A program made the translations under genes and the position numbers. Positions 16,142 through 32,185 of a stretch of 64,000 nucleotides of DNA are shown one piece after another (position 1 is the stretch's first letter; each line of letters opens with the position of its first letter). This stretch comes from an uncultured Nitrososphaerota archaeon (GTDB lineage: Archaea; Korarchaeota; Korarchaeia; Korarchaeales; Korarchaeaceae): positions 64,001 to 128,000 of the forward strand of contig CAZQNA010000003.1 in assembly GCA_964594835.1 (NCBI GenBank), in the 5' to 3' direction. The notes beneath the pieces are model-generated. The model saw only the letters and a program-made list of their open reading frames with translations, was not told where the DNA came from and ran no database searches.

Positions 16142-18730
16142 GTGGGCAGGTGCTCACGGTGCGGTCGGGAGTTCCCCGACTACCTGCTCAGGGTTGAGAG
16201 CGGCGAGATCCTGTGCATCTGGTGCGCCCTCGAGGAACTGGAGAGCAGAGTTGAGAGGCTTGAGGCCCTGGTCGAGGTCTCGAAGAAGCTAGCCGAGCTG
16301 CCAGAGGAGGCCCCCGTCGAGGAGACGCCCCCACCCGTCGCAGTCGAGGCCGAGCGCGAGGAGGCCTCCGAGGTATCCTCTGAGGTCGTGCCGGTGAGCC
16401 TGGAGGTCAAGATAGGGAGGGAGTGGTTCCTCAGGGCCGGAGTGATCCTGGTGGTGGCGGCGCTGGCCTACCTCTACGAGCACGTGGTCCTCTCGAGGCT
16501 GGGCCCGTGGGGCTACGTGGGGACCGGCGTGGCCGCTGGGGTGGCCGTCGCGGCGGTCGGAGAGTTCTGGGCCCCCAAGACCTCTGGCGCCCTCTCTAGG
16601 TTCATGAGGGTCATGATAGCCCTGGGGGGACTTTCCACGGTCGTCAGCCTGTGGGCCATGGCCTCGTACTTCCGGCTGACCGGCCCCGAGCCCTTCGTCC
16701 TCCTGTCGCTGGCGACCTCGACGTACCTGGCCTGGGCGTTCAGGAGACACGGAACCTGGGAGATCCTCGCGTCGTCCCTGACCTCCGGCTACGCGGTGTA
16801 TCTCTACGCCGCCTCGCTCCTCCTGCCGCGTTGGATCCCGACGCTCGCGCACGCGATCACATCGGCCGCCGGTCTTTCCTGCTCGTTTGACAGGGAGGAA
16901 GATCTCCCCGCGGCGGCGACGGCCGTGGGAGCCCTCTCGGCCTCAGCCCTCGCCGCCGTTGTGGGCTGGGGGTCGCCCTGGGAGATGGTCGTCGCGGCGG
17001 CGGTGCCGCCGATCCTCTTCTACACCTCCAGGTCCCCGGTGGTCCCGTGGCTCGCGACGCTGACCCCGCCCGCGGCCTCCGCCGCGGCCCACATGTTTGG
17101 GTCGCCGTGGCACTCCCTCCTGTTCGTGCCCGCCTTCATCGCCACCCTTCCGGCGGCCAGGGGGGGACAGAGGGGCCTCCTGGCTGCCATCGCTGCATCC
17201 GGCTCGCTGTCCCAGGTGGCCTACCTCCTGGCCTGGGCTGGCCGGGTCGACCTGAGGGCGCCCCTGAGCGGCGTCCCCCTGATGGCATTCTTGGCCGCCT
17301 TGACCGTCGAAGGCGAAGGAGGCGGCAGGGAATCTCTCGTCCCCCCGGCGCTGGGCCTCATGGTAGCGTCTGTCGAGTGCCTGCTGATCGACTGGGGCCC
17401 GGGCGCCGTGCTCGGAACCTCCGCCTTGCTCGCATTCGGCGTCGCCTCCCACCTCAGGCGAGGGGTCGTCGCGCCCGCGTCCGTCCTGGGTCCGCTCGTC
17501 CTCGCGTCTCTCTCCCTGGCTGGCGCGCCGGCATTACCCCTCTGGCTCACCTACTGGATCTACGCCGGCGCGGCGCTCACGGCGGCCTGGAGGTGGGCGG
17601 GAGGGGGTGAGGCGGCCGGTGGAGCCCCAGACTTCTTCCCCGCGATCCCCCTGGTGCCCGGGCAGCTGGCCCTGCTCGCCCTGCCTGCCGGGTCCCCGGT
17701 CGAGGTAGTCGCCCGACTGGCGTTCCTCTCCGCCCTGCTGGCCTACTCCGCGCTCTCCAAGTTCAGGCTGGCCGCGAAGGGTACTGGGTACACGGCCAGC
17801 ATCCTCGTCACATACGTCACCCTGAGCCTCATGTCGCGGGAAGGGTGGGGAGGCCTCTGGGCGACCTTGGTGCCGGCCTGGGGCACGTTCCTGTTCTCGC
17901 TCCTGATGTGGTGGAGGTTCGGCGACGTGGACGCCGCCTGGTCCCAGGTGGGCATCCCGGTGGCGGTCCTCCCGGCCTACAGGAGCCCGATGTTCTTCGG
18001 CCCCCGGGTCCCAGCCTCGCCGGGTGAGGCCGCGACCGCGGCGCTGCTCCTGGTCTCGGCGTCCCTGGCCGCGGCCGCTGAGGCCCGAGATGAGCCCTCG
18101 CTGCGGCCCATATCCGCCGTCACGATCCTCCCCATTGCGTTCAGCGCCTCCTACGGCTGGTCCGAGACGGTCCACTCAGCCTTCGCCGGCGCGGCCCTGG
18201 CATGCTCCCTGGCCTACGCCGCCTCGGCGCTCGCGAGTCGGGAGAGGGGAGAGCTGGCCATCTACCTCCTCTCCACATACCTGGCGTTCGACCTCCTCGC
18301 CTTCTCGACCGGTCTGCCGGACTGGACCGTGCCAACCGTCCCGCTGCTGGGGGCGGCCGCGTCCTACGCGGACTTCAGGGCCCGAGGGTCCGGCACGTGC
18401 GACGTCCTCCTAGCTGTGGGATCTCTCACGTCCGCAGGCTCAGCCCTGGCGGTATTTGGAGGCGGCCCGGCCGCCTCGGCGTTCCTCGCGGCATCTGGCG
18501 CTGGAGCGGTGGCGCTCGGTATCCCCGAGCGCTCAAGGATAGCCAGAGTGTCCGGGCTCGCCCTGCTCATCGCGGGCATCCTCAAGGCCCTGGTCCACGA
18601 TCTGGTTGAGCTCGGCCTCCTCTCGAGGGGGCTGAGCCTCCTGGCGGTGGGCGCCGCCCTCATAGGAATCTCGTACCTGTACGCCAGGTATCAGGACGTC
18701 ATCCTAGGCGAGGGATCGCGGAGCCGCTGA
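16142..18730 (+). CDS. Large polytopic membrane protein (DUF2339-like) with N-terminal Cys cluster
   Basis: CxxC...CxxC, coiled coil, LEVKIGREWF, more than 20 TM segments, C-terminal ILKALVHDL...ISYLY. Confidence 0.75.
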   Translation: MGRCSRCGREFPDYLLRVESGEILCIWCALEELESRVERLEALVEVSKKLAELPEEAPVEETPPPVAVEAEREEASEVSSEVVPVSLEVKIGREWFLRAGVILVVAALAYLYEHVVLSRLGPWGYVGTGVAAGVAVAAVGEFWAPKTSGALSRFMRVMIALGGLSTVVSLWAMASYFRLTGPEPFVLLSLATSTYLAWAFRRHGTWEILASSLTSGYAVYLYAASLLLPRWIPTLAHAITSAAGLSCSFDREEDLPAAATAVGALSASALAAVVGWGSPWEMVVAAAVPPILFYTSRSPVVPWLATLTPPAASAAAHMFGSPWHSLLFVPAFIATLPAARGGQRGLLAAIAASGSLSQVAYLLAWAGRVDLRAPLSGVPLMAFLAALTVEGEGGGRESLVPPALGLMVASVECLLIDWGPGAVLGTSALLAFGVASHLRRGVVAPASVLGPLVLASLSLAGAPALPLWLTYWIYAGAALTAAWRWAGGGEAAGGAPDFFPAIPLVPGQLALLALPAGSPVEVVARLAFLSALLAYSALSKFRLAAKGTGYTASILVTYVTLSLMSREGWGGLWATLVPAWGTFLFSLLMWWRFGDVDAAWSQVGIPVAVLPAYRSPMFFGPRVPASPGEAATAALLLVSASLAAAAEARDEPSLRPISAVTILPIAFSASYGWSETVHSAFAGAALACSLAYAASALASRERGELAIYLLSTYLAFDLLAFSTGLPDWTVPTVPLLGAAASYADFRARGSGTCDVLLAVGSLTSAGSALAVFGGGPAASAFLAASGAGAVALGIPERSRIARVSGLALLIAGILKALVHDLVELGLLSRGLSLLAVGAALIGISYLYARYQDVILGEGSRSR

Positions 18731-18850
18731 CTCGGCGGGGGGTAGGGACGGCGAGTTCGTCGGCGCGCTCGACCGGGCGCAGCCTGAGGCCTCGAAGGGA
18801 CCCACCCCTCTGAAGAGTTCTTAAGGCTGGGGGCGACTGGCCAGATTGCG

Positions 18851-19291
18851 TTGAGGTCGCCCCTGGTGAGCCCGGAAGGCAGGCTGTCCCTCCTCCAAGA
18901 GCTCAGGAGGAGGGGGTTCTACGTCAGGATGCACGCCTACGAGTACCTCGTCGCGGATCGGACGGGCTTCCTAGCGATCCTCTTGCTGGAGCCCTCTGCC
19001 GGGTCGGCCACCGTGGTGGATCTGAGGGGATCCAAGGGGGAGATCAGCGCGATCGTCGACTCAGTCCTCGCGGTGGATCCCCAGATCTCGATTAGGATGA
19101 GGAGGCCGGGGGGGCACCTGACCGCTATTGACCGTCGGCGGGTCGATGCGACGGCCCTCCGGGCCGGGAGGCAACCCTCGACCGTACCGAACTGCGGCAA
19201 GCGCGGGGGGCTGTGGGGCGGTCCAAAGATCGGCAAAAACCCCGGTTATCCCTCCCGTGGTGTGACTCTTTCACGCCGCCCGCCGACCTAA
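18851..19291 (+). CDS. Hypothetical protein
   Basis: First ~90 aa are protein-like (LRRRGFYVRMHAYEYLV); true 3' end uncertain. Confidence 0.5.
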   Translation: MRSPLVSPEGRLSLLQELRRRGFYVRMHAYEYLVADRTGFLAILLLEPSAGSATVVDLRGSKGEISAIVDSVLAVDPQISIRMRRPGGHLTAIDRRRVDATALRAGRQPSTVPNCGKRGGLWGGPKIGKNPGYPSRGVTLSRRPPT

Positions 19292-19350
19292 CGGCAGGCC
19301 TCACAGCCGCTGGCGGTCGAAAGATAACCCGTCGGCCGCGCGCGCTGGCC

Positions 19351-19376
19351 GGGAATAGATTACCCATAGTGGGTAA
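19351..19376 (+). promoter_or_regulatory. Distal putative operator GGGAA-N4-TTACC-N7-GGTAA
   Basis: gggaatagattacccatagtgggtaa; the same TTACC-N7-GGTAA arrangement occurs at 31372-31388. Confidence 0.6.
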
Positions 19377-19429
19377 AAAGGGATGATTTTGGATTAAATT
19401 TTTCTAACTAGTTGCGTGACGGGAGCAGG

Positions 19430-19461
19430 TTTATATTGTATTTGTTCGGCAAAAGGTTACC
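19430..19461 (+). promoter_or_regulatory. TATA box (TTTATAT) and proximal operator GGCAA-AAGG-TTACC of the ABC operon
   Basis: TATA at 19430-19436; 14-bp pseudo-palindrome at 19448-19461 over the expected start site. Confidence 0.65.
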
Positions 19462-19484
19462 ACACCATAGGCAAAGGTGGTCGT

Positions 19485-21101
19485 ATGTCCGAGACCCCCC
19501 GACGGAACTTCTTGAAGGTGGCCGGAGCGGCCGTCGTGGCCGCCGCCCTGGGCGTCATAGGGTATAAGGTGGCCAAGAAGCCGTCCCCCACACCCACCCC
19601 CACCACCCAGCCGCCCTCAACCACCGCGGCCCCTACCACCGCCCCGCCAGCCAAGGAGAAGGTCCTCATCTTCGGGCTGAAGGAGGACGTGGTGACCCTC
19701 GACCCGGCCATGCACAGGAAGAGGGTCACCGAGAGCGTGATCCAGCAGTATGCCGAGCCGCTGTTCTGGAGGACCAACGACATGCGGGTCATCCCGCACC
19801 TGCTTGAGTCCTACGAGTTCGTCGACGACCTGACCTGGAGGCTGAGGCTGAGGAAGGGGATCAAGTTCCACGACGGGACCGAGCTGAAGGCGGAGGACGT
19901 GAAGTTCACCCTGGAGAGGATACTCGACCCCAACCAGAACTCCCCCAGGGCCAGCATGATCGACGAGATTGACACCATCACGATAATCGACGACTACACC
20001 CTGGAGATCAAGACCAAGTACCCGAGCGGCCCGCTGATGGTGGACCTCACGTACCAGGAGATCCTGCCCAAGCACGCCGTCGAGGCGCAGGGGGAGGACT
20101 TCTTCAAGAACCCGTTCAGCACGGGCCCGTTCAAGTTCGTGGAGTGGGTGCCCGGAGAGAGGATAGTGTTCGAGAAGAACCCCGACTACTGGGGCGGTCC
20201 GGCTGAGGTGCCGCCGGTCGGCCCGCCGAAGGTCGACAAGCTGATCTTCAAGATCATACCAGACTCCGCCACCCGAATGCAGGCCCTCAAGGCCGGAGAG
20301 ATCCACATCTCCTACGGGTTCACCGCCGACCAGGCCGAGGAGATGGCGAGGGACCCGAACCTGGTCGTCGAGAAGGTCAGGGCGGCCAGGTCCGTCTTCG
20401 TGTTCCTGAACACCCACAAGGCGCCCTTCAGCGACAAGAGGGTCCGGCACGCCCTCAACATGGCCGTTGACGTCGACTCCATCATCCAGAACGTGCTGAA
20501 GGGATACGGGCGCAGGATAGCGTGCATGTCCTTCCCGGGCGTCCTGGGGCACGACCCGAACCTGGAGCCCTTCCCGTACGACCCCGACAGGGCGAAGCAG
20601 CTGCTGGCCGAGGCCGGCTACCCGGACGGCTTCGACGCCGTCATGATGTACGACGAGGAGTGGAGGAAGGACCAGGCCGAGGCCATCGCCTACTACCTGG
20701 GGCAGGTCGGCGTCAACGTCACAATCCAGCTGATGGACTGGGGCACCATCAAGAACGAGTACCTCCTCAAGGCCAAGGGAGACATGTACTTCGGCTCCTG
20801 GGGATGCGGCGAGCTGGAGCTCTACGGGAACGTGAACTCCACCTTCGCCAGGGAGGAGAACACCTACGCCTTCCTCTACCACAACGATGATGTCACCAGG
20901 CTGATGAAGGAGGCCCTCGCCACCCTCGACCCGGAGCAGAGGGCCCAGAAGTTCATGGAGCTCGAGAGGATCCTCCAAGAGGACGCTCCCGCCATCTGGC
21001 TGTGGGAGCAGTTCGACCCGTGGGTCTACAGGAAGGAGGTCACCTTCACCCCCAGGACCGACGAGAGGTACAACCTGGTGGACGCCGACATAAGCGTCTA
21101 A
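19485..21101 (+). CDS. ABC transporter substrate-binding protein, family 5 (DppA/OppA-like), Tat signal
   Basis: MSETPRRNFLK twin-arginine signal, Pro/Thr linker, TLDPA, LRKGIKFHDGT, TGPF, VRHALNMAVD. Confidence 0.93.
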   Translation: MSETPRRNFLKVAGAAVVAAALGVIGYKVAKKPSPTPTPTTQPPSTTAAPTTAPPAKEKVLIFGLKEDVVTLDPAMHRKRVTESVIQQYAEPLFWRTNDMRVIPHLLESYEFVDDLTWRLRLRKGIKFHDGTELKAEDVKFTLERILDPNQNSPRASMIDEIDTITIIDDYTLEIKTKYPSGPLMVDLTYQEILPKHAVEAQGEDFFKNPFSTGPFKFVEWVPGERIVFEKNPDYWGGPAEVPPVGPPKVDKLIFKIIPDSATRMQALKAGEIHISYGFTADQAEEMARDPNLVVEKVRAARSVFVFLNTHKAPFSDKRVRHALNMAVDVDSIIQNVLKGYGRRIACMSFPGVLGHDPNLEPFPYDPDRAKQLLAEAGYPDGFDAVMMYDEEWRKDQAEAIAYYLGQVGVNVTIQLMDWGTIKNEYLLKAKGDMYFGSWGCGELELYGNVNSTFAREENTYAFLYHNDDVTRLMKEALATLDPEQRAQKFMELERILQEDAPAIWLWEQFDPWVYRKEVTFTPRTDERYNLVDADISV

Positions 21102-21142
21102 ACCTTCCCCCCTCTCTTTTTTATCCGGGAGCGTGTGTCGCA

Positions 21143-22168
21143 ATGTTAGACCGGGATCTGCTCCGGCTGATCGGACGGCGCATCGTCGGACTAATCCCCG
21201 TGATGTTCGGGATCGCCATAATCGTCTTTCTGGTGTTCAGCTTCGTCCCGGGAGACCCGATCACGATGCTGATAGGCAAGCAGAGCGACGTCAGCGAGGA
21301 GTTCATACAGCAGCTCAGGCACAAGTATGGGCTGGACAGGCCCCTCTACATCCGATTCTTCTACTTCCTCCGCCAGCTGGCCCACGGAGACGTCGGCACA
21401 TCCTACCAGTTCAACAGGCCCGCCCTGGAGGTCGTACTTGAGAGGCTCCCGGCCACGATTGAGCTGGCCATCTTTGCGCTGGCCGTGGCCATCCTGATAG
21501 CCATCCCCGCCGGCATATTCGCCGCCCTGAAGGGAGGGGCGGTGGACAGGGGCATCGTGGGCCTCTCCGTGGTCGGCTTCTCGATGCCCAACTTCTGGAT
21601 AGCCATGCTGCTCATCCTCGTGTTCGGAACCACCCTGAAGGTCCTCCCAATCTCGGGGAGGCTGGACGTCACCCTCGACGTCGAGAGGGTGACGGGCTTC
21701 TACATCCTAGATGGGATATTGGCGGGGGACTGGGAGGTCGTCAGGTCGGCCCTGAGCCACATAATCCTCCCGGCCCTGTCCCTGGGCATCCCGGCGGCCG
21801 CCCTGATAGTCAGGCTCCTGAGGAACAACCTCATCAGCGTCCTGGGGGCCGAGTTCATCAGGGCCGCCAGGGCCAGGGGGCTAAGAGAGAGCGCCGTGAT
21901 ATACAAGCACGCCCTCCGGAACGCCCTGATCCCTACGATCAACATCGTGGCCCTCCAGCTGGGCTTCTTCCTGACCGGCTCCTTCTTCGTCGAGACCGTC
22001 TTCGCCTGGCCCGGGATGGGCCGGCTGGCAGTGGACGCGATCTACGCCAGGGACTACCCGGTGGTGATCGCGGCGGTGATGATATCGGCGCTGTTCTTCG
22101 TCCTCTCAAACCTGCTGGCCGACGTCCTGATCCTGGTGACGGACCCGAGGACGAGGGGGGTGAGGTGA
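21143..22168 (+). CDS. Dpp/Opp ABC permease (DppB-like)
   Basis: PGDP, GLDRP, RLPATIEL, AARARGL, HALRNA, ETVFAWPGMG. Confidence 0.93.
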   Translation: MLDRDLLRLIGRRIVGLIPVMFGIAIIVFLVFSFVPGDPITMLIGKQSDVSEEFIQQLRHKYGLDRPLYIRFFYFLRQLAHGDVGTSYQFNRPALEVVLERLPATIELAIFALAVAILIAIPAGIFAALKGGAVDRGIVGLSVVGFSMPNFWIAMLLILVFGTTLKVLPISGRLDVTLDVERVTGFYILDGILAGDWEVVRSALSHIILPALSLGIPAAALIVRLLRNNLISVLGAEFIRAARARGLRESAVIYKHALRNALIPTINIVALQLGFFLTGSFFVETVFAWPGMGRLAVDAIYARDYPVVIAAVMISALFFVLSNLLADVLILVTDPRTRGVR

Positions 22169-23092
22169 TTGAGCGCGGGCAGGAGGATCGTGACGGTGCG
22201 CGACGACCTCCTGAGGCTCATCAGGGGGCCGACGGTCAGCTACATGAGGAGGGATCCCGGCGCAATAGTGGGGGGCTCAATATTCCTCCTGTTCGTGGTG
22301 TCGGCCCTCTTCGCCGGGTACGTGGCACCGTACGATCCCTACGAGGCAGACCTCGGCAATTCTCTGAGGCCCCCGGTGGGGTTCGGGGGCAGATGGGAGC
22401 ACCCGCTGGGGACGGACGCGATTGGGAGGGACCTGCTCAGCAGGCTGATCTACGGGGCCAGGATCTCTCTGTCCGTGGCGGCGGTCTCCGTGACCCTGGC
22501 CGTCATAGTGGGCGTCTCGCTCGGGGCCCTCTCCGGGTACTTCGGCGGGGTGATAGACGAGGTCCTGATGAGGATCGTCGACTTCTGGCTCAGCTTCCCC
22601 GCAGTGCTGATGGCCATCTCCCTGATGGTGGTCCTGGGCCCAGGCTACTGGAACGTGGTGGCCGCCATGACGCTCACCTCCTGGGTTCCCTTCGCGAGGG
22701 TCGTGAGGGGGGAGTTCCTGACCCTAAGGGAGAGGCCCTTCATCCTGGCCGCGAAGGCGATAGGCGTGGGGAGCGGCCACATAATCTTCAGGGAGGCGCT
22801 TCCCAACACCTTCCCGTCCCTGATAGTCCTCTCGACCTTTCAGCTGGCCAGGAACATAATCTACGAGGCCTCGCTCAGCTTCATCGGGATCGGCGTGAAG
22901 CCGCCCAACCCCTCCTGGGGCCTCATGCTCGGGACCGGGAGGCAGCACATACTGGACGCCTGGTGGATAGCCATGTTCCCCGGGCTCGCGATCACCCTGG
23001 TCGTGCTTGGGATCAACCTACTGGGCGACTCGCTCAGGGACGCGCTGGATCCGACCGTCAAGAAGAAGCTGGGGGTTGTGGAGGTGCAATGA
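22169..23092 (+). CDS. Dpp/Opp ABC permease (DppC-like)
   Basis: HPLGTDAIGRDLLSRLIYGARISL, EASLSFIG, PSWG, NLLGDSLRDALDP. Confidence 0.93.
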   Translation: MSAGRRIVTVRDDLLRLIRGPTVSYMRRDPGAIVGGSIFLLFVVSALFAGYVAPYDPYEADLGNSLRPPVGFGGRWEHPLGTDAIGRDLLSRLIYGARISLSVAAVSVTLAVIVGVSLGALSGYFGGVIDEVLMRIVDFWLSFPAVLMAISLMVVLGPGYWNVVAAMTLTSWVPFARVVRGEFLTLRERPFILAAKAIGVGSGHIIFREALPNTFPSLIVLSTFQLARNIIYEASLSFIGIGVKPPNPSWGLMLGTGRQHILDAWWIAMFPGLAITLVVLGINLLGDSLRDALDPTVKKKLGVVEVQ

Positions 23093-24060
23093 CGGCGCTA
23101 CTCTCGCTCCGGGACGTGACCAAGTACTTCGAGATCAAGAGGGGGATGTTCGAGAGGAGAGTCGTCAAGGCCGTCGACGGGGTCAGCTTCGACGTGGAGG
23201 AGGGTCAGACAGTCGGCCTGGTCGGGGAGAGCGGGTCAGGCAAGTCGACCCTCGCCCTGACGGTCCTGAGGCTGTACGAGCCGACGGGAGGGCAGGCATT
23301 CTTCGAGGGGGAGGACCTCTTCAGCCTCAGGGGTCGGGAACTCACCAGGCTGAGGAGGAAAATGGGGATCGTGTTCCAAGACCCCTACCTCTCCCTGAAC
23401 CCCGTGAAGAGGGTAAGGGACATCGTGGGCCTCCCGCTGAAGGTCCACGCCCCGGACCTGAGCTTCGAGGAGAGGGAGGCCAGGATAAGGGAGATGCTGG
23501 AGCAGGTGGGCCTGAAGGCGTCTGACATCGAGAGGTTCCCGCACGAGTTCAGCGGCGGGCAGAGACAGAGGATAGCCATAGCCAGAGCCCTGATAGTCAG
23601 GCCCAAGTTCCTCATCCTGGACGAGCCCACGTCGGCCCTGGACCTCTCCGTGCAGGCGAAGATACTCAACCTGCTGCTGGACCTGCAGAGGGAGTTCAGG
23701 CTGACCTACCTTTTCATAACCCACGACATGAACGTGATCAAGCACATCTCCGACAGGATCAACGTGATGTACCTCGGCAAGCTCGTGGAGTCCGCCGAGA
23801 CCGAGGAACTCTTCGAGAGACCGCTCCACCCGTACACCCAGGCCCTCCTGTCGTCTGTCCCGACCCTGGACCCCAGGCGGAGGGGCAGGAAGAGGATACT
23901 GCTCAGGGGGGACCCGCCGGACCCGGCCAACCCGCCCTCGGGGTGCAGGTTCTCCAGCAGGTGCCCGCTGGCCGAAGAGATCTGCAGGCGGGAGGAGACC
24001 CCGCTGGTCGAGGTGGAGCCCGGCCACTGGGTGGCCTGCCACAGGGTGGGGGGTGGCTGA
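23089..24060 (+). CDS. Dpp/Opp ABC ATPase (DppF-like)
   Basis: GESGSGKST, FSGGQRQR, LDEPTSALD, HPYT, CRF..RC; ATG 23089 overlaps the dppC stop. Confidence 0.93.
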   Translation: MTALLSLRDVTKYFEIKRGMFERRVVKAVDGVSFDVEEGQTVGLVGESGSGKSTLALTVLRLYEPTGGQAFFEGEDLFSLRGRELTRLRRKMGIVFQDPYLSLNPVKRVRDIVGLPLKVHAPDLSFEEREARIREMLEQVGLKASDIERFPHEFSGGQRQRIAIARALIVRPKFLILDEPTSALDLSVQAKILNLLLDLQREFRLTYLFITHDMNVIKHISDRINVMYLGKLVESAETEELFERPLHPYTQALLSSVPTLDPRRRGRKRILLRGDPPDPANPPSGCRFSSRCPLAEEICRREETPLVEVEPGHWVACHRVGGG

Positions 24061-25142
24061 TGGTGCTCAGGATGGTCGCTCTCTCCGGTGGGCCCCGGGA
24101 GATGGGGCTCCAGCTCGGGAAGGAGGTCAGGTCCCTGACCCCCCACATCAGGGAGCTCTTCGACGCTGTCCGGAGGGAGATAGGGGAGAACCTCTCCCTC
24201 GAGAGGCTCGTGGGGGACATGAGGGCCGTGGTCGAGAGGCACTCCCCCGAGTTCATGGAGATGCTCGAGGGCGTGGCCGAGGGTGCCTGGTTCGCCAGGG
24301 ACATCCTGTTCGAGACGACCTGCTCCACGTTCCTCAGACACATGCTGCACTACGGCCTGGAGTGCTCGGTCTGGGCTGTCAGGGCTGAGCACACGGTCGT
24401 AGGGGAGCCCATCCTGGCCAAGAACAGGGACAAGAGGGTCAGGTACAAGCCCCTCCACCTGTTCGTCTACGCCAGGCCGAGGGACGGCCTCGCCTACTTC
24501 GCCTCCACGAACGCCGGCGACCCGGGGGTGGCTGGGGGAGGGATGAACGAGAGGGGCCTGACCGTGTTCTCGACGTACGTGGCCTCGTCCGACATCGGGG
24601 TGGGCCTGCCCGACAACGTCCTGGCGAAGATGATACTCGAGAGCTGCTCCACGGTGGAGGAGGCCATAGATCTCCTGAAGTCGGTCCCCCGGCTCGGCCA
24701 GTTCACCTTCACGCTGGGCGACTCCAAGGGGGACATAGCCGTGGTGGAGGTCGGATACAGCGAGCTCGACGTGGAGTTCCCCGAGTCCGGGTACGCCTTC
24801 CGGACGAACCACTTCAAATCCGCCAGGATGAGCGAGAGGTACTACGACCCCTACCACTACACCGAGTACGAGAGGGAGGACACCCTGGCCAGGTGGAGGC
24901 ACCTCGACGAGAGGGTGCGGGGTGCGCTGGGCACCATAGACCTGAACTTCGTGAAGAGGCTCATGAGGTACCACGACCCGGCGGGGCACTCGATCTGCAG
25001 GCACGTGGGGGAGGGGGACGTCCCGATAGAGACCGTGGCGTCCATGATAGCCCTGCCCAGAAGGACCAGGATCCTCTTCGCCGAGGGGCCGCCCTGCGAG
25101 CACCCCTACATGTCCCTGGACCTGGGAGGTGGCATGCCGTGA
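24060..25142 (+). CDS. C45-family Ntn-hydrolase (AAT/acyltransferase-like peptidase)
   Basis: Autoprocessing LE|CS, AKNRD, GMNERGL, RTNHF, SICRH, GPPC. Confidence 0.85.
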   Translation: MVLRMVALSGGPREMGLQLGKEVRSLTPHIRELFDAVRREIGENLSLERLVGDMRAVVERHSPEFMEMLEGVAEGAWFARDILFETTCSTFLRHMLHYGLECSVWAVRAEHTVVGEPILAKNRDKRVRYKPLHLFVYARPRDGLAYFASTNAGDPGVAGGGMNERGLTVFSTYVASSDIGVGLPDNVLAKMILESCSTVEEAIDLLKSVPRLGQFTFTLGDSKGDIAVVEVGYSELDVEFPESGYAFRTNHFKSARMSERYYDPYHYTEYEREDTLARWRHLDERVRGALGTIDLNFVKRLMRYHDPAGHSICRHVGEGDVPIETVASMIALPRRTRILFAEGPPCEHPYMSLDLGGGMP

Positions 25143-26116
25143 CGCTTCTGGAGGTAAGGGACCTGAAGGTCTACTACTACGCCTTCGACGGCGTCGTGAG
25201 GGCCGTCGACGGCGTCTCCCTGAGCATAGGGACCGGCGAGTTCTTCGGACTCATAGGGGAGTCCGGCTGCGGGAAGTCCACCCTGGGCAACGCTATCCTG
25301 AGGCTGGTCCCGCCCCCCGGAATGATCTCCGGGGGGAGCATCTACTTCCAGGGGGAGAACCTCCTCTCCCTCTCGGAGGAGAGGATGAGGGATATCCGGG
25401 GAGACAGGATCTCCATGATATTCCAGGACCCGACGGCCGCGCTTGACCCGGTCTACACGATAGGGGACCAGATCGTCGAGACGATCCTGGCCCACAACCC
25501 CGACTACGGGAAGAGGGAGGCGGAGCAGAGGGCCGTGGAGCTCCTCAAGCTAGTGGGGATCCCGGGGGCCGAGGCTAGGATCCACGAGTACCCCCACCAG
25601 TTCAGCGGGGGCATGAGGCAGAGGGCCGTCATAGCCATAGCCCTGGCGAACAGCCCTGAACTCTTGATAGCGGACGAGCCGACCACCAACCTAGACGTGA
25701 CCATAGAGGCCCAGATCCTCACCCTCCTGGACCAGCTGAGGAGGAAGCTCAACATGTCCATCCTCCTGATAACCCACAACATAGGGATCGTCGCCGAGTA
25801 CACCGACCGAGTGGGCGTGATGTACGCCGGGAAGTTAGTCGAGTTGGGCAACACGGTGGACGTGCTCACCGACCCCAAACACCCTTATACCCAGGGCCTG
25901 CTCGGCGCGATACCTGGAAGGGGCGGCAGGAAGGGTCGGGTCACGGAGATCCCCGGGACCGTCCCGAACCTGTCCAGCCCGCCTCCCGGGTGCAGGTTCC
26001 ACCCCAGGTGCCCCAGGAGGTTTGAGCCCTGCGACCGGGAGGAGCCTCCGCTGGTGGAGCTCCCCGGCGGGGGGAGGATGGTCGCATGTCACCTGTACAG
26101 GGGTACCGGAAGCTGA
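25139..26116 (+). CDS. Dpp/Opp ABC ATPase (DppD-like)
   Basis: GESGCGKST, YPHQFSGGMRQR, ADEPTT, HPYT, CRFHPRC; GTGA overlap. Confidence 0.93.
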   Translation: MTLLEVRDLKVYYYAFDGVVRAVDGVSLSIGTGEFFGLIGESGCGKSTLGNAILRLVPPPGMISGGSIYFQGENLLSLSEERMRDIRGDRISMIFQDPTAALDPVYTIGDQIVETILAHNPDYGKREAEQRAVELLKLVGIPGAEARIHEYPHQFSGGMRQRAVIAIALANSPELLIADEPTTNLDVTIEAQILTLLDQLRRKLNMSILLITHNIGIVAEYTDRVGVMYAGKLVELGNTVDVLTDPKHPYTQGLLGAIPGRGGRKGRVTEIPGTVPNLSSPPPGCRFHPRCPRRFEPCDREEPPLVELPGGGRMVACHLYRGTGS

Positions 26117-27069
26117 ATGAGAACATGCTCGAGATCCTGGCCATCCTCGACGGGATCGAGGGGCCGGCCACGTCGGGCGAGATCCAGAGGGAGCTGAACA
26201 GGCGTGGCATCTACCTCAGCCAGAGGACCATCAGGTACTACCTGAAGCTCATGGACGAGCTGGGGCTCACCAGGAAGGTGAGGAAGGCCAGGCAGATAAC
26301 TAGCGAGGGCCGCAGGAGGATGCGGGCCCTGACGGTCTCCACTAGGATGGAGTGGATGCTGGACAGGATGTACCAGAGGATAGCTGAGATGGACTTCGAC
26401 CTCGGGGAGGGGAGGGGGACCGTGATCGCCAACAAGCTGTTCATCAGGAGGGAGGACTTTACCTGGGTGATGAGGCACGTCCTGAGCCTGGGGAAGGAGG
26501 TCCCCAGGATTCTCTTCTACCCGAGGTTCCAGGTGAGGGAGTTGGGCCTCAGGAGGGGGGACCTCTTCGAGATCAAGTACGTGTCCTCGAACACGCTCTA
26601 CGGCATACTCCTCAGGAACGGGGTCCCCGTGAGCATAAAGGGCGTCGGCCTGCTCGAGCTCAGAGACTACAGGCCCACTACATTCTCGGAGGTGATGCAC
26701 TACTCAGGCACGACGATAAGCCCCTCCCAGCTCCTGATATTCGCGGGCATGACCAAGGTCTCGGAGGCGGCCAAGAGGGGGACGGGAACGGTCCTGGCCA
26801 CCTTCGGGGAGATCCCCTACAACAGCATCTCGAAGGCCCAGAAGATACTCGAGAGGATGAGGGGGCTCGGCTTCGAGGGTATCATGGAGATAAGGGAGCC
26901 GGGGTTCGCCTACGGCCTGAGGACCGGGAAGCTGAGGGGCGTGGTGATCAGCGTCACGGGCGCGAACTTACCGGCCATGATAAGGGAGGGCGGCTTCGAT
27001 ATCAGGATGGCCTTCGACACCGGGATGGAGGAGCTGGAGTCCTTCGACAGGAGCGTCATCCCGGTCTGA
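26113..27069 (+). CDS. NrpR-like (DUF128) transcriptional repressor: wHTH plus a single NrpR domain
   Basis: LEILAIL...RTIRYYLKLMDELGLT...RQITSEG; MDFD...GTVIAN, YSGTTISP, GTVLA, GANL; start 26113 (CTG) or 26125 (ATG). Confidence 0.8.
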   Translation: MNENMLEILAILDGIEGPATSGEIQRELNRRGIYLSQRTIRYYLKLMDELGLTRKVRKARQITSEGRRRMRALTVSTRMEWMLDRMYQRIAEMDFDLGEGRGTVIANKLFIRREDFTWVMRHVLSLGKEVPRILFYPRFQVRELGLRRGDLFEIKYVSSNTLYGILLRNGVPVSIKGVGLLELRDYRPTTFSEVMHYSGTTISPSQLLIFAGMTKVSEAAKRGTGTVLATFGEIPYNSISKAQKILERMRGLGFEGIMEIREPGFAYGLRTGKLRGVVISVTGANLPAMIREGGFDIRMAFDTGMEELESFDRSVIPV

Positions 27070-28465
27070 CCGGAGAGACGGAGTCAAGGAGGATCTTCAG
27101 GGCCTTGTCCGGCTCCCTCCCGGCTAGGAGGCCCATGGCCCAGAAGACGTAGGCCCTGTCAACGTACATGTCGGGCTCCCTAGGCTTGAGGACGAAGGGC
27201 CTGGACTCATCGTAGACCGCCTCGCCGAGGATCCTCCAAGGCCTCCTGCTGTTAACGATCGGGCCCCCCGTGCCGACGACCGTCCTCACACCGGTCAGGT
27301 CCTTCCCCGTCAGGACGTAGAACTTCCCCATGGGGGTCGGTATCTCCTCCAGTCTCCCCACGTGCCTCTCCACCCCGAGCTCGACCGCCGACCTGGCCAG
27401 CGCCTCGTCCACCAGCCAGTCGAACTCGGTCTTGGGCAGGTAGCTGGTGTGTCGGCGCAGCATGCGGATGTGCTCCTCCACGGCCTCGGGCCTGACGTCC
27501 CCTAGGTCCTCTCTGATCTTGGACACTATCCTCTCGAGGCCGGCCGCCTCCAGCAGCGACTCGGCGCTCACCCTGACCCCCAGGTCCCCCTCCACGGTCC
27601 TCTTCAAGTACGGTTCCTCTAGACCCTTCTCCACCACCCCCGGGAGTTCTGACCTCCCTTCCGCCACGCTGTAGACGTTGGTCGTGGCCCCCCCTATCTC
27701 GACGGCCAGGAGCTCTCCCATGCCGCCCTGGGAGCGGGTCCCCTCCGCGAGGAGCTCTGCCGCCCTCAGAGAGGCAGAGGGGGTGGGCATGAGGATATCG
27801 AGCAGCCCCGTGACCCTGTCTAGTCCCTTTGCCTGGATTATCCTCCTCAGGAAGATCTCCCTGATCTTCTCGTTGGCGGGCCTCACGTTGAGCTTCCCCA
27901 GCTCGGGCATGATGTTCTCGGTCCAGTAGACCTCCTTTCCGGCCGAGGAGAGTATCTCCACCACGTCGTCCCTGGCCTCCTTGTTCCCCGCCACCAGGAT
28001 GGGACAGCTGAGCCCCGAGGAGGCCAGCATCCTGGCGTTGTGCGTTATCGTCTTCTTGTCCCCGCCGTCCGTCCCGCCGGTCAGGAGGACGATGTCGGGG
28101 TCCTGCGACTCTATCGAGGCCACCTCGCTCCTGGTGAGCTCAAACGAGTACACCCCGATGACCTTGGCCCCGGCCGTCAGCGCGGCCCTCCTGCCAGCCT
28201 CGGCGCTGTACTTCGGCACCAGCCCGACGACGACCATTTTCAGCCCGCCTGCGGCGCTGCTGCAGGCCAGCCTGTACTCGAAGGGGCCGTCCGACAGGTC
28301 GTCGAGGGAGAGTCCGATCTCCCCCAGGGCCCTCGCCAGCCCGTGCCTGACGTCCGTGTCCACCGTGCTTGGCGCCCTGGAGGAGGAGACCACCCGCTCC
28401 TCCCCCAGGTCGACCACGACGGCCTTGGTGAAGGTGCTTCCGAAGTCTATCAGGAGGGCCCGCAA
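27056..28465 (-). CDS. glmL: GlmL/MutL-type B12-mutase accessory (reactivating) ATPase
   Basis: LIDFGSTFTK, ACSSAAGGL, TGGTDGG, AGNK, MPTP, EIGGATTNVYS, KRTVEGDLG, VGTGG. Confidence 0.9.
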   Translation of the reverse strand: MRALLIDFGSTFTKAVVVDLGEERVVSSSRAPSTVDTDVRHGLARALGEIGLSLDDLSDGPFEYRLACSSAAGGLKMVVVGLVPKYSAEAGRRAALTAGAKVIGVYSFELTRSEVASIESQDPDIVLLTGGTDGGDKKTITHNARMLASSGLSCPILVAGNKEARDDVVEILSSAGKEVYWTENIMPELGKLNVRPANEKIREIFLRRIIQAKGLDRVTGLLDILMPTPSASLRAAELLAEGTRSQGGMGELLAVEIGGATTNVYSVAEGRSELPGVVEKGLEEPYLKRTVEGDLGVRVSAESLLEAAGLERIVSKIREDLGDVRPEAVEEHIRMLRRHTSYLPKTEFDWLVDEALARSAVELGVERHVGRLEEIPTPMGKFYVLTGKDLTGVRTVVGTGGPIVNSRRPWRILGEAVYDESRPFVLKPREPDMYVDRAYVFWAMGLLAGREPDKALKILLDSVSPVRPG

Positions 28466-28468
28466 GGG

Positions 28469-29554
28469 CTATTCTCCCCTCACGAACGCCACTATATCCT
28501 CCGCGGACATCCCCTCCAGACCGAGGTTCCTCGCGCTCCTCCCCTCTCTGTAGAAGTCCCTGTCGAAGACCGCCGAGGCTATGGATATGAGGGACCTCGA
28601 GACGGGGGTGCTCACCCCGACCTGCTCCCCCACGTCGGCGTAGGGCACCAGACCGGTGGGGACGTCCTCCAGGAGGTACCTGACGGCCAGCGTGGAGGGC
28701 GCCTTTATCCCCCTGTAGGCCTCGTTGTTCTGCAGGGCCTCGTAGACATCCTTCCCCCTCGCACCGTACTTCTCCTCCAGCCACTCCAGCAGGCTAAGTA
28801 CGTGGGTGTCTAGCGCCCGCGCCAGGGCCACCCTTTCGGCGTCTACCCTCTCAAGCACCTTGGACACGGATGGGCTGGCGCCCTCCACGTAGAACTCGAA
28901 GTCCCCCCCGCGCTCTATCCAGCCCGCGTTCATGAGCGTGATCGTGGGGTGGAACACCGCCCCTATGTTGGTGAGGCTGGTCTCGAGCACGTCCCTGGCC
29001 CCGTCGAACTGCGGGTATAGCTGGCGGATCGTGTCCAGCAGCTCTCCGGTGTCGGGGGCTGGAAGGGCGGCCAGCCTGACTTCCTTCTTGACCCCGAGCA
29101 CCCTCGCCCTCGTGGGGGACAGCCCCCTGGCCGCGTAGACCAAGGTCTCGGCCTCTCCGACTATCACTCCCTCGGCCCTCTCTCCCAGTATCCTCTTGAA
29201 CTCGATCGCCCCGAAGGTCCTGCCCGGGTTCAGCAGGATCTTCTGACCCCGCCGGAGGTGGGGGGCGATCGACCGGGCGATGTGCCTGTGGGCGTGGGCG
29301 GGGACGACCACCATGATCAGGTCGGCGTCCCTCACGGCCTCGCCGGCGTCGGTGGTGGCGAGGGCGATGGGGCCGAAGCCCTCGACCGCCCCCTCCAGCT
29401 CTATCCCTCCCCTCCTCCTGACCTCCCCGAGGTCAACGTTGAACTCCGGCTCCCTCTCCTTGTAGTTGTAGAGCCGGACCTCGTGCCCCATCAGGCCCAG
29501 GTGGGCGGCCATGGCCTTGCCGCCGTGGCCGGCGCCCATCACGGCTATCCTCAT
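28469..29554 (-). CDS. NAD(P)-dependent opine (octopine/nopaline-type) dehydrogenase
   Basis: GAGHGG Rossmann motif, LNPGRTFG, NIGAVFHP, FYVEG, RYLLEDVPTGLVP. Confidence 0.9.
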   Translation of the reverse strand: MRIAVMGAGHGGKAMAAHLGLMGHEVRLYNYKEREPEFNVDLGEVRRRGGIELEGAVEGFGPIALATTDAGEAVRDADLIMVVVPAHAHRHIARSIAPHLRRGQKILLNPGRTFGAIEFKRILGERAEGVIVGEAETLVYAARGLSPTRARVLGVKKEVRLAALPAPDTGELLDTIRQLYPQFDGARDVLETSLTNIGAVFHPTITLMNAGWIERGGDFEFYVEGASPSVSKVLERVDAERVALARALDTHVLSLLEWLEEKYGARGKDVYEALQNNEAYRGIKAPSTLAVRYLLEDVPTGLVPYADVGEQVGVSTPVSRSLISIASAVFDRDFYREGRSARNLGLEGMSAEDIVAFVRGE

Positions 29555-29580
29555 CCAACCGCCTCCCTTCGCCCGCCTGC

Positions 29581-31266
29581 TCAGATAAGTCTCCCCTTGA
29601 AGTAGTCGTCCAGGATCCTGCGGACGCGCTCCTCCTCCGGCAGGGGCCTCTTGGTCTCAGGGTCTACTGCGTGGGCCGCCCCGTTGATGATCCTGGTCTC
29701 TATCTCTCCCCTGGCGTATGGGTTGTTCTTCAGGTGGGGGGCGTCCAGTATCCCCACCTTCAGGGCCCTCGCGAGAGTCTGGGGGTCGGTCCACGGGTCC
29801 TTGACCCCAGGGTCTGCGATCTTCCTTATGGCGTCCAGCGTCACCTTTGCCTCCCTCACCAGCTCCTCCCTCCTCGCATGGATCTTCGGGTCCCTCGTCA
29901 CGTCGGGCAGGCCGTGCAGCGTGTCGCTGATCACCTGGTGCACGATCTTGCCGCTCTCTATGATCTCCTCGGCCGTGGCCGCATGGTCGGGCTCGGTGTA
30001 CGCGACCATGTGGATTATGTGGGGCTTCAGGTGCATCTGCATCGTCACGGAGTAGGCCATGTGGCCCTTGGCCGCGTCCAGGTCGGGCGGGTAGCTGGAC
30101 AGGCCCGTCCTGGTCTGGATGAAGATCTTGAAGTTCTCGTCCTCCAGGGGCTTGATTATGTCTATCTTGGCCAGCTGCTTGGCCAGGTCCATCTCGGCAG
30201 AAATGCCGGGCGGGAGGTCGAACATGAGGGTGGCGATGTAGTGCCTCACTCCCGCCTTCTTGGCGTTGTAGGCGGAGAGGAACGCGTCTGCGACGGCGAT
30301 GACGTCAGGGGCGTCCCTGAGCTCGAAGTGGTGGGGCTCGTTCAGCTCGACCGGTATGCCCCTCTCGCCGTGCCAGGCCATCAGCCTCTGGTGCTCGTCT
30401 ATGGCCTCGACCAGGTCAAGGGGGCCCCTCCCGTCGAGCCTGCTGAACCAGAACAGCGGGATGGCCGCCCAGGCGTTCTTGATGGTCCTGACCAGGAGGT
30501 CGGCCATCTTGAACAGGTCGCTGGTCCCCTGGTAGCACCTGAGGAGCGGGTAGTTGCCCGTCCTGGTCGCCTCGTATATCTTGACGAGGTCGTCCTCTGA
30601 CCTTATGGGAACGCCTCCGGCTCCGGCCCTCCCTGGATCCCACTTCTCTGGGTGGAAGAAGTTCTCCTGGAACTCCTGGTCGGGGGCTATCGAGATGACG
30701 TCTATCAGCCTGGACTCCGCCACCTTCCTGGCGGCCTCGACGGTCTCCTCGACGGAGCTGAGCCCCAGGTGCTGCCGGATTATGGGGTACGGGTACTTCC
30801 AGGCGATCCTCTCCACGGTCGTCTGCGGATAGTGCTCCTCACCCTTGCCGGCCTCACCCCCTCCCTTGAGGTAGGAGACGACCTCGTCCATGGTCTCCCT
30901 GCCGCTGAACACCCTGTCGAAGAAGCCGAAGCTCTCCGCCACCTCTGCCACCGGAGGAGTCCCTCCGAAGACGTACCTCTTGCCCTCGAGCCCGGCCTCC
31001 CTCACGGCGCTGATGAATCGCTCTATCCAGTACCTCCCGGACTCCGGCATCAGCCTGTAGCTGATCCCGACTATGTCAGGGTCCGTCTCCTTTATCGCCG
31101 CCACGATCTCCTCGGGGGTGTTTGCCGGCCCCAGGAATATGGTGTCGTAGCCAACCTGCTCGGCCAGCCTCAGGAACTTGATTATCCCGGCCACGTGCAC
31201 GTCCTCACCAAGAGCGGCGGCGAGGATCTTGGGCCGCCTCTCCTCGCTCTTCTCGCCGGACGACAT
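29581..31266 (-). CDS. Single-chain cobalamin-dependent mutase-like protein (B12-binding domain plus TIM barrel)
   Basis: DxHxxG motif EDVHVAG, ISYRL and FGG of a base-off B12 domain; ~420-aa C-terminal domain with weak GlmE-like features; in an operon with glmL. Confidence 0.8.
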   Translation of the reverse strand: MSSGEKSEERRPKILAAALGEDVHVAGIIKFLRLAEQVGYDTIFLGPANTPEEIVAAIKETDPDIVGISYRLMPESGRYWIERFISAVREAGLEGKRYVFGGTPPVAEVAESFGFFDRVFSGRETMDEVVSYLKGGGEAGKGEEHYPQTTVERIAWKYPYPIIRQHLGLSSVEETVEAARKVAESRLIDVISIAPDQEFQENFFHPEKWDPGRAGAGGVPIRSEDDLVKIYEATRTGNYPLLRCYQGTSDLFKMADLLVRTIKNAWAAIPLFWFSRLDGRGPLDLVEAIDEHQRLMAWHGERGIPVELNEPHHFELRDAPDVIAVADAFLSAYNAKKAGVRHYIATLMFDLPPGISAEMDLAKQLAKIDIIKPLEDENFKIFIQTRTGLSSYPPDLDAAKGHMAYSVTMQMHLKPHIIHMVAYTEPDHAATAEEIIESGKIVHQVISDTLHGLPDVTRDPKIHARREELVREAKVTLDAIRKIADPGVKDPWTDPQTLARALKVGILDAPHLKNNPYARGEIETRIINGAAHAVDPETKRPLPEEERVRRILDDYFKGRLI

Positions 31267-31279
31267 GCAACCACCCAGC

Positions 31280-31321
31280 GGTAAGGTGTTGCCGGGTTGG
31301 CGCGCGTCGGTTCTTTAAAAA
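31280..31321 (-). promoter_or_regulatory. TATA box (TTTTAAAG) and proximal operator GGCAA-CACC-TTACC of the B12 operon
   Basis: Minus-strand TATA at 31320-31313; operator at 31293-31280 matches 19448-19461. Confidence 0.65.
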
Positions 31322-31371
31322 CCCTAGCAAATATCCCAGATAAATGTTTATTACTTCCATATAATCTCAGT

Positions 31372-31398
31372 TTACCGGAAAAGGGTAACATGATTGCC
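31372..31398 (-). promoter_or_regulatory. Distal putative operator GGCAA-N5-TTACC-N7-GGTAA
   Basis: Plus strand ttaccggaaaagggtaacatgattgcc; same layout as 19351-19376. Confidence 0.6.
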
Positions 31399-31636
31399 AG
31401 GTGGCCGATCTGGGCGGCCGGGCGGCAGACAACGGTTGGGGGGATCCGGTGGCGGAGATGATCGATTTTAGCCGCAGCGCCCGACCTCGTTCACAGAGTC
31501 CTGGGATCGGCCGTCTGTTGAAAAACGGCATCTTGTTGGGATTACGTGCCTTTCCCCAACTCCGGCAAGGTGGTCGAGATCCCCGCCCCCCTCCAAGCTG
31601 GTTAAGACAATGGTTATGACCTAGTCCCGGCGCGGG

Positions 31637-32185
31637 GTGGGCGTGCCCGACCCTGAGAGGGATGCGGTGATCACGGTGGCCGAGCTGATGCTCGTGGCCG
31701 CCAGGACTGCGCCGAAGGCCAAGGGCGTCGACTCCATCGAGACCGCAATATTGCTGGGCGACGACCTGGCCGAACTGGCCGACGAGATGCGGCGCCTGGC
31801 CGGAGTGCGCGGCCGCGCGTTCTACGCGAGGGACGCCGGAAACGTCGAGTCGTCGGACTGCGTCGTGCTAATTGGCTCCAGGGCCCACGAGCCACTGGGA
31901 ATGGACTGCGGCATGTGCGGGTACCGGTCCTGCGCGGAGAGGCTGAGGGCCTGGCGGGAGTCTGGAGCCCCCATGAGGGGACCCTTCTGCGAGTTCAAGG
32001 TCATCGACCTGGGGGTGGCGGTGGGCTCCGCGGCGAAGCTGGCCTCCTCGCTGAACGTGGACAACAGGGTCATGTTCAGCGTCGGGGATGCCGCCATCTC
32101 GCTGGGATCTCTTCCGGGGGCCACCTTGGCGCTTGGGATACCCCTCGCGGCCCGGGGAAAGAGTCCGTTCTTCGACAGGAGGTAG
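31637..32185 (+). CDS. DUF2148 ferredoxin-domain protein
   Basis: AARTAPKAKGVD, DCGMCGYRSC, DLGVAVGSA, VDNRVMFSVG, KSPFFDR. Confidence 0.88.
   Translation: MGVPDPERDAVITVAELMLVAARTAPKAKGVDSIETAILLGDDLAELADEMRRLAGVRGRAFYARDAGNVESSDCVVLIGSRAHEPLGMDCGMCGYRSCAERLRAWRESGAPMRGPFCEFKVIDLGVAVGSAAKLASSLNVDNRVMFSVGDAAISLGSLPGATLALGIPLAARGKSPFFDRR

Follow-up and report, generated by a model that had tools for sequence, protein, structure and literature searches.

In an uncultured vent archaeon two operons face each other and encode the predicted uptake and breakdown of a small nitrogen compound, and the promoters of both carry copies of the same short operator-like arrangement. This raises the question of whether the two operons are under common control and, if so, which protein reads the sites. 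NrpR is known as the master repressor of nitrogen metabolism in methanogens, with one operator consensus. Our analysis suggests that the sites described here are likely a new operator variant of an NrpR-family repressor, which serves a cassette other than one for nitrogen assimilation and lies outside the Euryarchaeota. The window is the whole 64,000-nucleotide stretch that was analyzed; it is part of contig C3 of the genome (G000; 1,818,972 bases in 24 contigs, 65% G+C, 97% completeness), which was searched in full.

The two convergent operons are located between 19485 and 31266, within a cassette of approximately 19350-31400. The genes of the plus-strand operon, of the minus-strand operon and beyond are as follows:

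19485-21101, + strand: first gene of the plus-strand operon, Tat-signal family-5 solute-binding protein of peptide, nickel or opine type (SBP_bac_5, 2.5e-97; TAT_signal)
21002-22168, + strand: DppB-like permease (listed ORF, true start probably later)
22169-23092, + strand: OppC-like permease (listed ORF, true start probably later)
domain from about 23090 to 24060, + strand: ABC ATPase (listed ORF, true start probably later)
within 23943-25142, + strand: C45-family Ntn acyltransferase/hydrolase (listed ORF, true start probably later)
within 24893-26116, + strand: second ABC ATPase (listed ORF, true start probably later)
26086-27069, + strand: last gene of the plus-strand operon, NrpR-family regulator (327 aa; winged helix at the N-terminus, single NRD domain)
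27056-28465, - strand: GlmL-type mutase accessory protein (574 bits versus an equivalog cut-off of 475)
28469-29554, - strand: opine/octopine-dehydrogenase-like protein (domain search)
29581-31266, - strand: 561-aa protein with an N-terminal B12-binding domain (domain search)
31637-32185: DUF2148 gene, located beyond the minus-strand promoter and divergent from the minus-strand operon

The 561-aa B12-binding protein is a member of a very large, mostly bacterial family (6451 matches among the 8000 candidates scored), and its relatives are typically 55-69% identical, many of them being labelled Chloroflexi/Anaerolineae. Its C-terminal 420 aa gave no match in Pfam or in PDB sequences. As some of the relatives have a precomputed match to PF06368 (methylaspartate mutase E), the protein looks like a fused S+E glutamate-mutase-like enzyme.

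Upstream of the plus-strand operon (promoter P1) and of the minus-strand operon (promoter P2) we identified corresponding sets of elements, the inverted site A and the everted site B being the ones that recur with the same half-site:

19448-19461, + strand: site A of P1, GGCAA-AAGG-TTACC, approximately -12 to +2 relative to the predicted start site
31293-31280, - strand: site A of P2, GGCAA-CACC-TTACC, approximately -2 to +12 relative to the predicted start site
19360-19376: site B of P1, TTACC-N7-GGTAA, an everted palindrome free of mismatches, centred approximately 93 nt before the predicted start site
31388-31372: site B of P2, TTACC-N7-GGTAA, everted, centred approximately 89 nt before the predicted start site
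19351-19355, + strand: outer half-site-like GGGAA of P1 (within GGGAAT, 19351-19356), flanking site B
31398-31394, - strand: outer GGCAA of P2 (within GGCAAT, 31398-31393), flanking site B
19430-19437, + strand: TATA-like box of P1, TTTATATT, centre 51.5 nt before the ATG at 19485
31321-31314, - strand: TATA-like box of P2, TTTTTAAA, centre 51.5 nt before the ATG at 31266
19393-19403: distal AT-rich block in P1, downstream of site B and upstream of the TATA-like box
31340-31353: distal AT-rich block in P2, downstream of site B and upstream of the TATA-like box

Re-reading the sequence returned the two A sites exactly as the initial annotation had given them, in letters, in coordinates and in the C that directly precedes each, and both lie downstream of a TATA-like box over the predicted start. 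The start sites themselves are predicted: archaeal TATA boxes stand about 26-27 nt before start sites, and by this rule transcription would begin at approximately 19460 and 31291. Across the genome AT-rich 8-mers peak at 30-40 nt upstream of roughly called gene starts and form a shoulder that reaches to -50, in agreement with this spacing. A ribosome-binding GGTGG precedes the ATG by 4 nt at both promoters. Site A is centred 21 nt from the centre of the TATA-like box in P1 and 31 nt in P2, i.e. 10 bp further away in P2, and as 10 bp amount to one helical turn, site A keeps the same face of the helix in both promoters. From the centre of B to that of A the distance is 86.5 nt (P1) and 93.5 nt (P2), in good agreement with the 'about 90 nt' proposed before; it differs by 7 bp between the promoters, so that the helical phasing expected for a loop is not kept.

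One 5-mer half-site, GGYAA/TTRCC, is common to A and B. The spacers of the two promoters are unlike each other (AAGG versus CACC in A, CATAGTG versus CTTTTCC in B), and identical half-sites around differing spacers are, judged by sequence, the usual pattern of protein-binding sites. The initial annotation had described a two-part operator architecture at both promoters. The upstream element is everted, TTACC-N7-GGYAA, and spans 17 bp, with its arm centres 12 bp apart, as compared to 9 bp in the inverted site A. One rigid dimer could thus not read A and B alike, and 'the same operator twice' is too simple a description.

How unusual is this arrangement? Within the window, GGYAA-N4-TTRCC occurs twice (0.04 expected) and TTACC-N7-GGTAA also twice (0.02 expected), a number reached in none of 100 shuffles for either motif, and all of these matches belong to the two promoters. 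The half-site GG[CT]AA alone has 1368 copies genome-wide and its complement 1300 (one strand), so that about one pair (0.98) is expected for each arrangement and spacing; the 32 half-site arrangements that we counted have between zero and four matches each. The genome-wide scan for the inverted N4 form, which had been proposed as a check of the motif, returned three places, P1, P2 and C19:5853, the last being a chance-level, intragenic match well within an ORF of 626 aa. The everted N7 form was found in P1 and P2 only. Stretches of 140 nt with five half-sites exist three times in the genome, namely at P1, at P2 and at C17:5993-6115.

Two further loci were considered as third members of a regulon and rejected. 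C17:5993-6115 is an AT-rich region that has neither the A nor the B arrangement, and C7:11779-11819 is a run of direct repeats. The latter is the densest half-site cluster of the genome: four direct copies of a GGTAA-containing TTGGTAA unit within 41 nt, located at the junction of two minus-strand ORFs in an arrangement unrelated to A and B. The region around the former, C17:5850-6300, is markedly AT-rich in this genome of 65% G+C, adjoins ORFs of 694 and 322 aa and may be foreign DNA.

As the A/B motif had been defined from these very sites, we also carried out a motif-free census of all 5+5 dyads with spacers of 0-12 and at most one mismatch to the palindrome (72,380 classes) in 793 crude upstream regions, giving 314,028 region pairs. 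The census was limited to genome-exclusive dyads, the unrestricted form being dominated by overlapping divergent regions and GC-rich dyads. Exactly two occurrences in the genome were found for 10,734 classes, and in 237 of these both copies lie in different upstream regions. One such class is shared by 227 region pairs, two classes by three pairs and four classes by a single pair. P1-P2 is among the four of 314,028 pairs that have at least two genome-exclusive dyads in common, and it is the only one of the four whose two dyads use the same half-site; in two of the other three the dyads are nested in a single shared AT-rich stretch.

The one remaining pair with two separate genome-exclusive dyads consists of the upstream regions at C1:110938 and C8:101027, which share TAAAA-N1-GTTTA and GGATT-N5-AAACC. 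It may represent another small regulon or chance in AT-rich promoter DNA.

Conservation was followed in promoter alignments of this genome with its congeners G001 and G004, which are close to each other, so that the three genomes amount to two effective lineages. The cassette is whole in both congeners at about 85% DNA identity, from just before P1 site B through P2 to 36121. The DNA outside B is barely alignable; then sharp blocks follow, comprising B, the distal AT-rich block, the TATA-like box, and A together with the ribosome-binding site. Half-site positions are invariant in 39 of 40 cases versus 142 of 198 other intergenic positions (TATA box and ribosome-binding site left out), giving a one-sided Fisher p of 9e-5, which is a descriptive figure only as there are just two effective lineages. 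The half-sites are conserved in the two congeners that carry the cassette. The four-fold degenerate sites of the cassette genes are identical in fractions of 0.51-0.78, with 0.55-0.59 in the B12 gene and 0.78 in the binding-protein gene; this neutral identity near P1 is high, so conservation at P1 counts as weak evidence.

Site by site, the lone half-site change in the congeners turns GGTAA into GGCAA in P1 site B, a T to C exchange at the degenerate position, and one base of the spacer of that site is changed as well. In P1 site A the half-sites are invariant at 10 of 10 positions and the spacer reads AACG instead of AAGG in G004. P2 site A is invariant at 14 of 14 positions in the three genomes and P2 site B at 17 of 17, lying inside an invariant block of 20 nt. 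The TATA-like boxes are invariant at 8/8 (P1) and 7/8 (P2) positions. The initial annotation had written the upstream element as GG(G/C)AAT..TTACC-N7-GGTAA; the whole string is present at both promoters and its B part is conserved, but in the outer GGGAA/GGCAA arm only one of five positions is invariant at each promoter. The outer GG(G/C)AAT arm is specific to this genome and probably not part of the element. A third half-site located 3' of P1 site A (19470-19474) is interrupted in the congeners by the insertion of a G. DNA contigs from four sequencing runs contained the G000-like and the G001/G004-like promoter forms only. In G031, a genome that is 71% complete and in which we found no NrpR-like gene, the region upstream of a 54%-identical B12 gene is unrelated and without dyads, which is one case.

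The regulator, both operons and both promoters co-occur in G000, G001 and G004, and all of them are absent from the syntenic slot of G003, a 95% complete genome of the same genus. The G003 equivalent of 19002-31678 (L033, contig C65) contains a different set of 3.8 kb, in which ATP-grasp, GCS2-like and FGase-like (N-formylglutamate-amidohydrolase-like) genes are located between the MscS-like and the DUF2148 gene, and no A or B arrangement is present. The two-operon module is thus an accessory cassette whose parts come and go together among members of the genus.

With these data it can be asked whether the two promoters resemble each other for reasons that have no regulatory meaning, i.e. as the remnant of a duplication, as the ends of a mobile element or by chance. 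The A sites do have identical arms in the same orientation, P1 and P2 stand in inverted orientation at either end of a 12-kb cassette, which varies in the genus, and the alignable DNA of the relatives begins right at P1 site B. The likeness of P1 and P2 is, however, confined to the dyads and to the TATA and ribosome-binding elements, the spacers vary while the arms are kept, and the half-sites are more conserved than their surroundings. Moreover, the homology with G001 and G004 continues past P2, which is thus not the end of an element, and the points at which the homology with G003 breaks off are some 350 and 280 nt away from the B sites, on their outer sides. A terminal inverted repeat or a promoter duplication was rejected, since no extended P1-P2 inverted repeat is present among the 25 longest of 467 pairs. 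Taken together with a chance level of about 1e-5 from the dyad census, this makes a likeness without function highly improbable. The shared promoter architecture, which is unique in the genome and preserved in the congeners, links the two operons independently of their annotation, just as had been suggested initially.

The distal AT-rich blocks need separate consideration. They are conserved like the TATA boxes in the three genomes (11/11 positions in P1, 13/14 in P2), lie 30.5 nt (P1) and 33.5 nt (P2) from the centres of B, and may each be a second or divergent TATA box or promoter. Site B might then be part of this second promoter, either as an operator over a divergent start, since on the opposite strand B would cover approximately +1 to +16, or as the upstream activating site of a tandem promoter. 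The regulator would in that case have a dual role, as a repressor at A and as an activator or repressor at B. A divergent gene does exist at P2, the DUF2148 gene, although its start is about 250 nt from B, and P1 has no conserved divergent gene: an 80-aa ORF that starts inside P1 site B loses its ATG in the congeners, where the DNA further upstream is unalignable. An RNA product is also not apparent, as Rfam gave no matches at E up to 1 over 18600-31800 and hence no sign of a riboswitch or leader RNA. We consider a role of B in a second promoter unlikely. Site A, if read as RNA, would pair its arms with a C-A mismatch.

Which protein could bind to these sites? The initial annotation had pointed to an NrpR-like protein at 26113-27069. 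Its assignment proved right and its start too late, as the gene begins with the ATG at 26086 behind a GGAGG, overlapping the preceding ATPase gene by 31 nt. The protein is a genuine member of the NrpR family: residues 16-77 match HTH_12 (PF08461; E = 1.6e-13, 50.8 bits versus a cut-off of 21.4), residues 91-320 match NRD1_2 (PF01995; E = 5.5e-45, 153.9 bits versus a cut-off of 25), and the solved MJ0159 domain 3NEK is matched at 7.3e-12. It is the only PF01995 match of the genome, so that search returned no second, NRD-only gene equivalent to NrpR2. Among the cassette genes and the neighbours scanned we found no other DNA-binding or transcription-factor domain.

Within the phylum the regulator is present in three of the five genomes of the genus (G000, G001 and G004) and in none of the 38 other genomes searched, i.e. 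in 3 of 43 overall, and homologues were found in five of 41 relatives, the two beyond these three genomes being 27-29% identical. Next to the distant homologues in G038 and G033, 14-bp GG...CC palindromes occur as intragenic matches only. A word-based protein search gave four proteins with 100, 98, 91 and 32% identity, and an exhaustive search of 1.84 billion representatives gave 322 matches at E up to 0.001, among them no full-length relative between 91% and 36% and a few short fragments reaching 41%. By its sequence the regulator is isolated, with at most 36% identity to full-length relatives outside its own cluster of 90% and above. Scanning genome contigs for the regulator returned three loci and scanning metagenome contigs one, all approximately 90% identical; the nearest contig records are labelled as 'Thermoproteota archaeon' metagenome-assembled genomes.

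The sites might also be real operators that are read by another transcription factor encoded elsewhere, the NrpR-like protein having other targets or none. The link between the protein and the DNA is indeed circumstantial, and the everted site B does not fit the canonical form of an NrpR operator. As the motifs occur nowhere else in the non-coding DNA of the genome, however, a factor encoded elsewhere would have to serve this cassette alone. The gain or loss of the cassette as one unit, with regulator and promoters included, and the lack of another DNA-binding domain among the cassette genes and scanned neighbours argue in the same direction, and we regard an unrelated factor as quite unlikely.

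The literature on NrpR allows a comparison with Methanococcus maripaludis, where NrpR controls nif and glnA and belongs to the same protein family of winged helix plus NRD domain. The operator consensus given in PMC2723118 is GGAAN6TTCC, so that site A resembles it as a 14-bp inverted repeat with outer GG and CC, having the same span and polarity, as the initial annotation had stated. If the predicted start sites are right, site A would also correspond in placement to the methanococcal operators described in PMC5512572, which lie downstream of the TATA box at the start site, and as in the M. maripaludis system there is more than one putative operator per promoter. The half-site is different, being 5 bp (GGYAA) with a 4-bp spacer instead of GGAA-N6-TTCC; site A agrees with that consensus at GG-A...T-CC and differs at the inner bases, and site B is everted. 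The second site is a 17-bp everted element about 90 bp upstream here and a nearby copy of the first in M. maripaludis. Differences extend to the targets, a transporter and a B12-mutase/opine-dehydrogenase cassette as compared to nif, glnA and amtB; a regulon for nitrogen assimilation (nif, glnA, amtB-glnK) was not found, the non-coding places of the motif being the two cassette promoters only. Unlike M. maripaludis NrpR, the regulator is encoded within its own putative regulon.

In Methanosarcina NrpR is split over two genes, NrpR1 holding the DNA-binding region, as stated in bioRxiv 10.1101/2020.06.15.153874. Our regulator is similar to NrpR1 (NrpRI) in combining a single winged helix with a single NRD domain over a length of about 330 aa, and differs from it in the putative regulon and in that no NrpR2 equivalent was found in the genome. 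PMC3584215, from 2012, describes NrpR as seemingly restricted to Euryarchaeota, whereas the host here is labelled Thermoproteota. None of the literature that we searched uses the terms 'NrpR-like', 'NrpR family' or 'NrpR homolog(s)/homologue'.

Another archaeal family offers a parallel in layout. TrmB-family regulators have their genes close to an ABC transporter operon for sugars or peptides, and their effect depends on the position of the site, which would repress when located downstream of the TATA box and could help or activate when located upstream. Local coding and a palindrome downstream of the TATA box are thus similar to the cassette; the protein family differs.

The explanation that we favor, and to which we give somewhat better than even credence, is that A and B are the cis-regulatory sites of the cassette and are bound by its NrpR-family protein, with repression, release by a metabolite and autoregulation. 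A dimer of the protein would occupy the 14-bp site A, which lies downstream of the TATA box and spans the predicted start site, and would from there prevent RNA polymerase from being recruited or from escaping, in the manner of NrpR at nif and glnA. Site B, some 90 bp further upstream, would be bound by a second dimer that stabilizes the complex, either by cooperative binding or by looping through a higher oligomer. A metabolite would then free the protein; by analogy this may be 2-oxoglutarate, or else the imported compound or one of its products. Release would switch on both operons together. As the regulator is the last gene of the plus-strand operon, it would regulate itself. The sequence data show the motifs, their uniqueness and conservation, their placement relative to TATA-like box, ribosome-binding site and ATG, and the family of the regulator, which has no second member in the genome. 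What we infer are the start sites, the identity of the binding protein, its action as a repressor and not an activator, its oligomeric state and its effector.

Several observations do not sit easily with this explanation. The arm centres are spaced 12 bp in the everted B and 9 bp in the inverted A, and the distance from A to B (86.5 versus 93.5 nt) does not preserve the phasing of a loop. The asymmetric GGCAA...TTACC arms are the same and oriented the same at both A sites, so that their identity could reflect common descent instead of selection. The agreement of A with GGAA-N6-TTCC, confined to GG-A...T-CC, is a resemblance and not proof, and conservation comes from two effective lineages, the metagenome contigs being of the same types. 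The finding is well delimited; its evidence is circumstantial and derives from three genomes that are close relatives.

A bacterial origin is probable for the cassette, while its regulator is of archaeal type. A broader reading can be offered tentatively, as possible though rather doubtful: a member of the NrpR family outside the Euryarchaeota would have been turned from global nitrogen control into a switch dedicated to a largely bacterial-type cassette, acquired laterally, for uptake and B12-dependent breakdown of an opine- or peptide-like compound, using one half-site in two geometries. If so, flexibly tethered winged helices on an oligomer would bridge the inverted 14-bp and the everted 17-bp sites. 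If 2-oxoglutarate, a possible product of opine cleavage, were still the effector, the cassette would be induced by its product via the ancestral nitrogen signal.

Returning to the favored explanation, in which the regulator of the cassette binds to A and B, the NrpR family would have a clearly bounded putative regulon of two promoters here, marked by another half-site, found in another archaeal lineage and placed on a cassette for catabolism and transport. The system is small enough to be tested, consisting of one protein, two promoters of 150 bp and four sites, and it bears on how NrpR-family winged helices choose their DNA, on a possible change of the sensor ligand and on the control of a laterally acquired pair of operons by an archaeon. 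The shared promoters are also evidence, of an independent kind, for a single pathway in which the transporter operon and the B12-mutase/opine-dehydrogenase/GlmL operon take part.

Two minor observations concern the DNA around the cassette and its distribution. Upstream of P1, G000 has a gene for an 862-aa DUF2339 membrane protein (16142-18730), in place of which G001 and G004 have unrelated DNA of about 1.2 kb. A contig of 4.2 kb, QMSR01000093.1 (Ga0164318_10044055; L013/L016), which contains a regulator homologue with 90% identity and neither of the promoters, is labelled 'Thermoplasmata archaeon' and has approximately 86% DNA identity to positions 24591-28828 of the window; as it matches the cassette of genomes labelled Thermoproteota, its bin or label is probably wrong.
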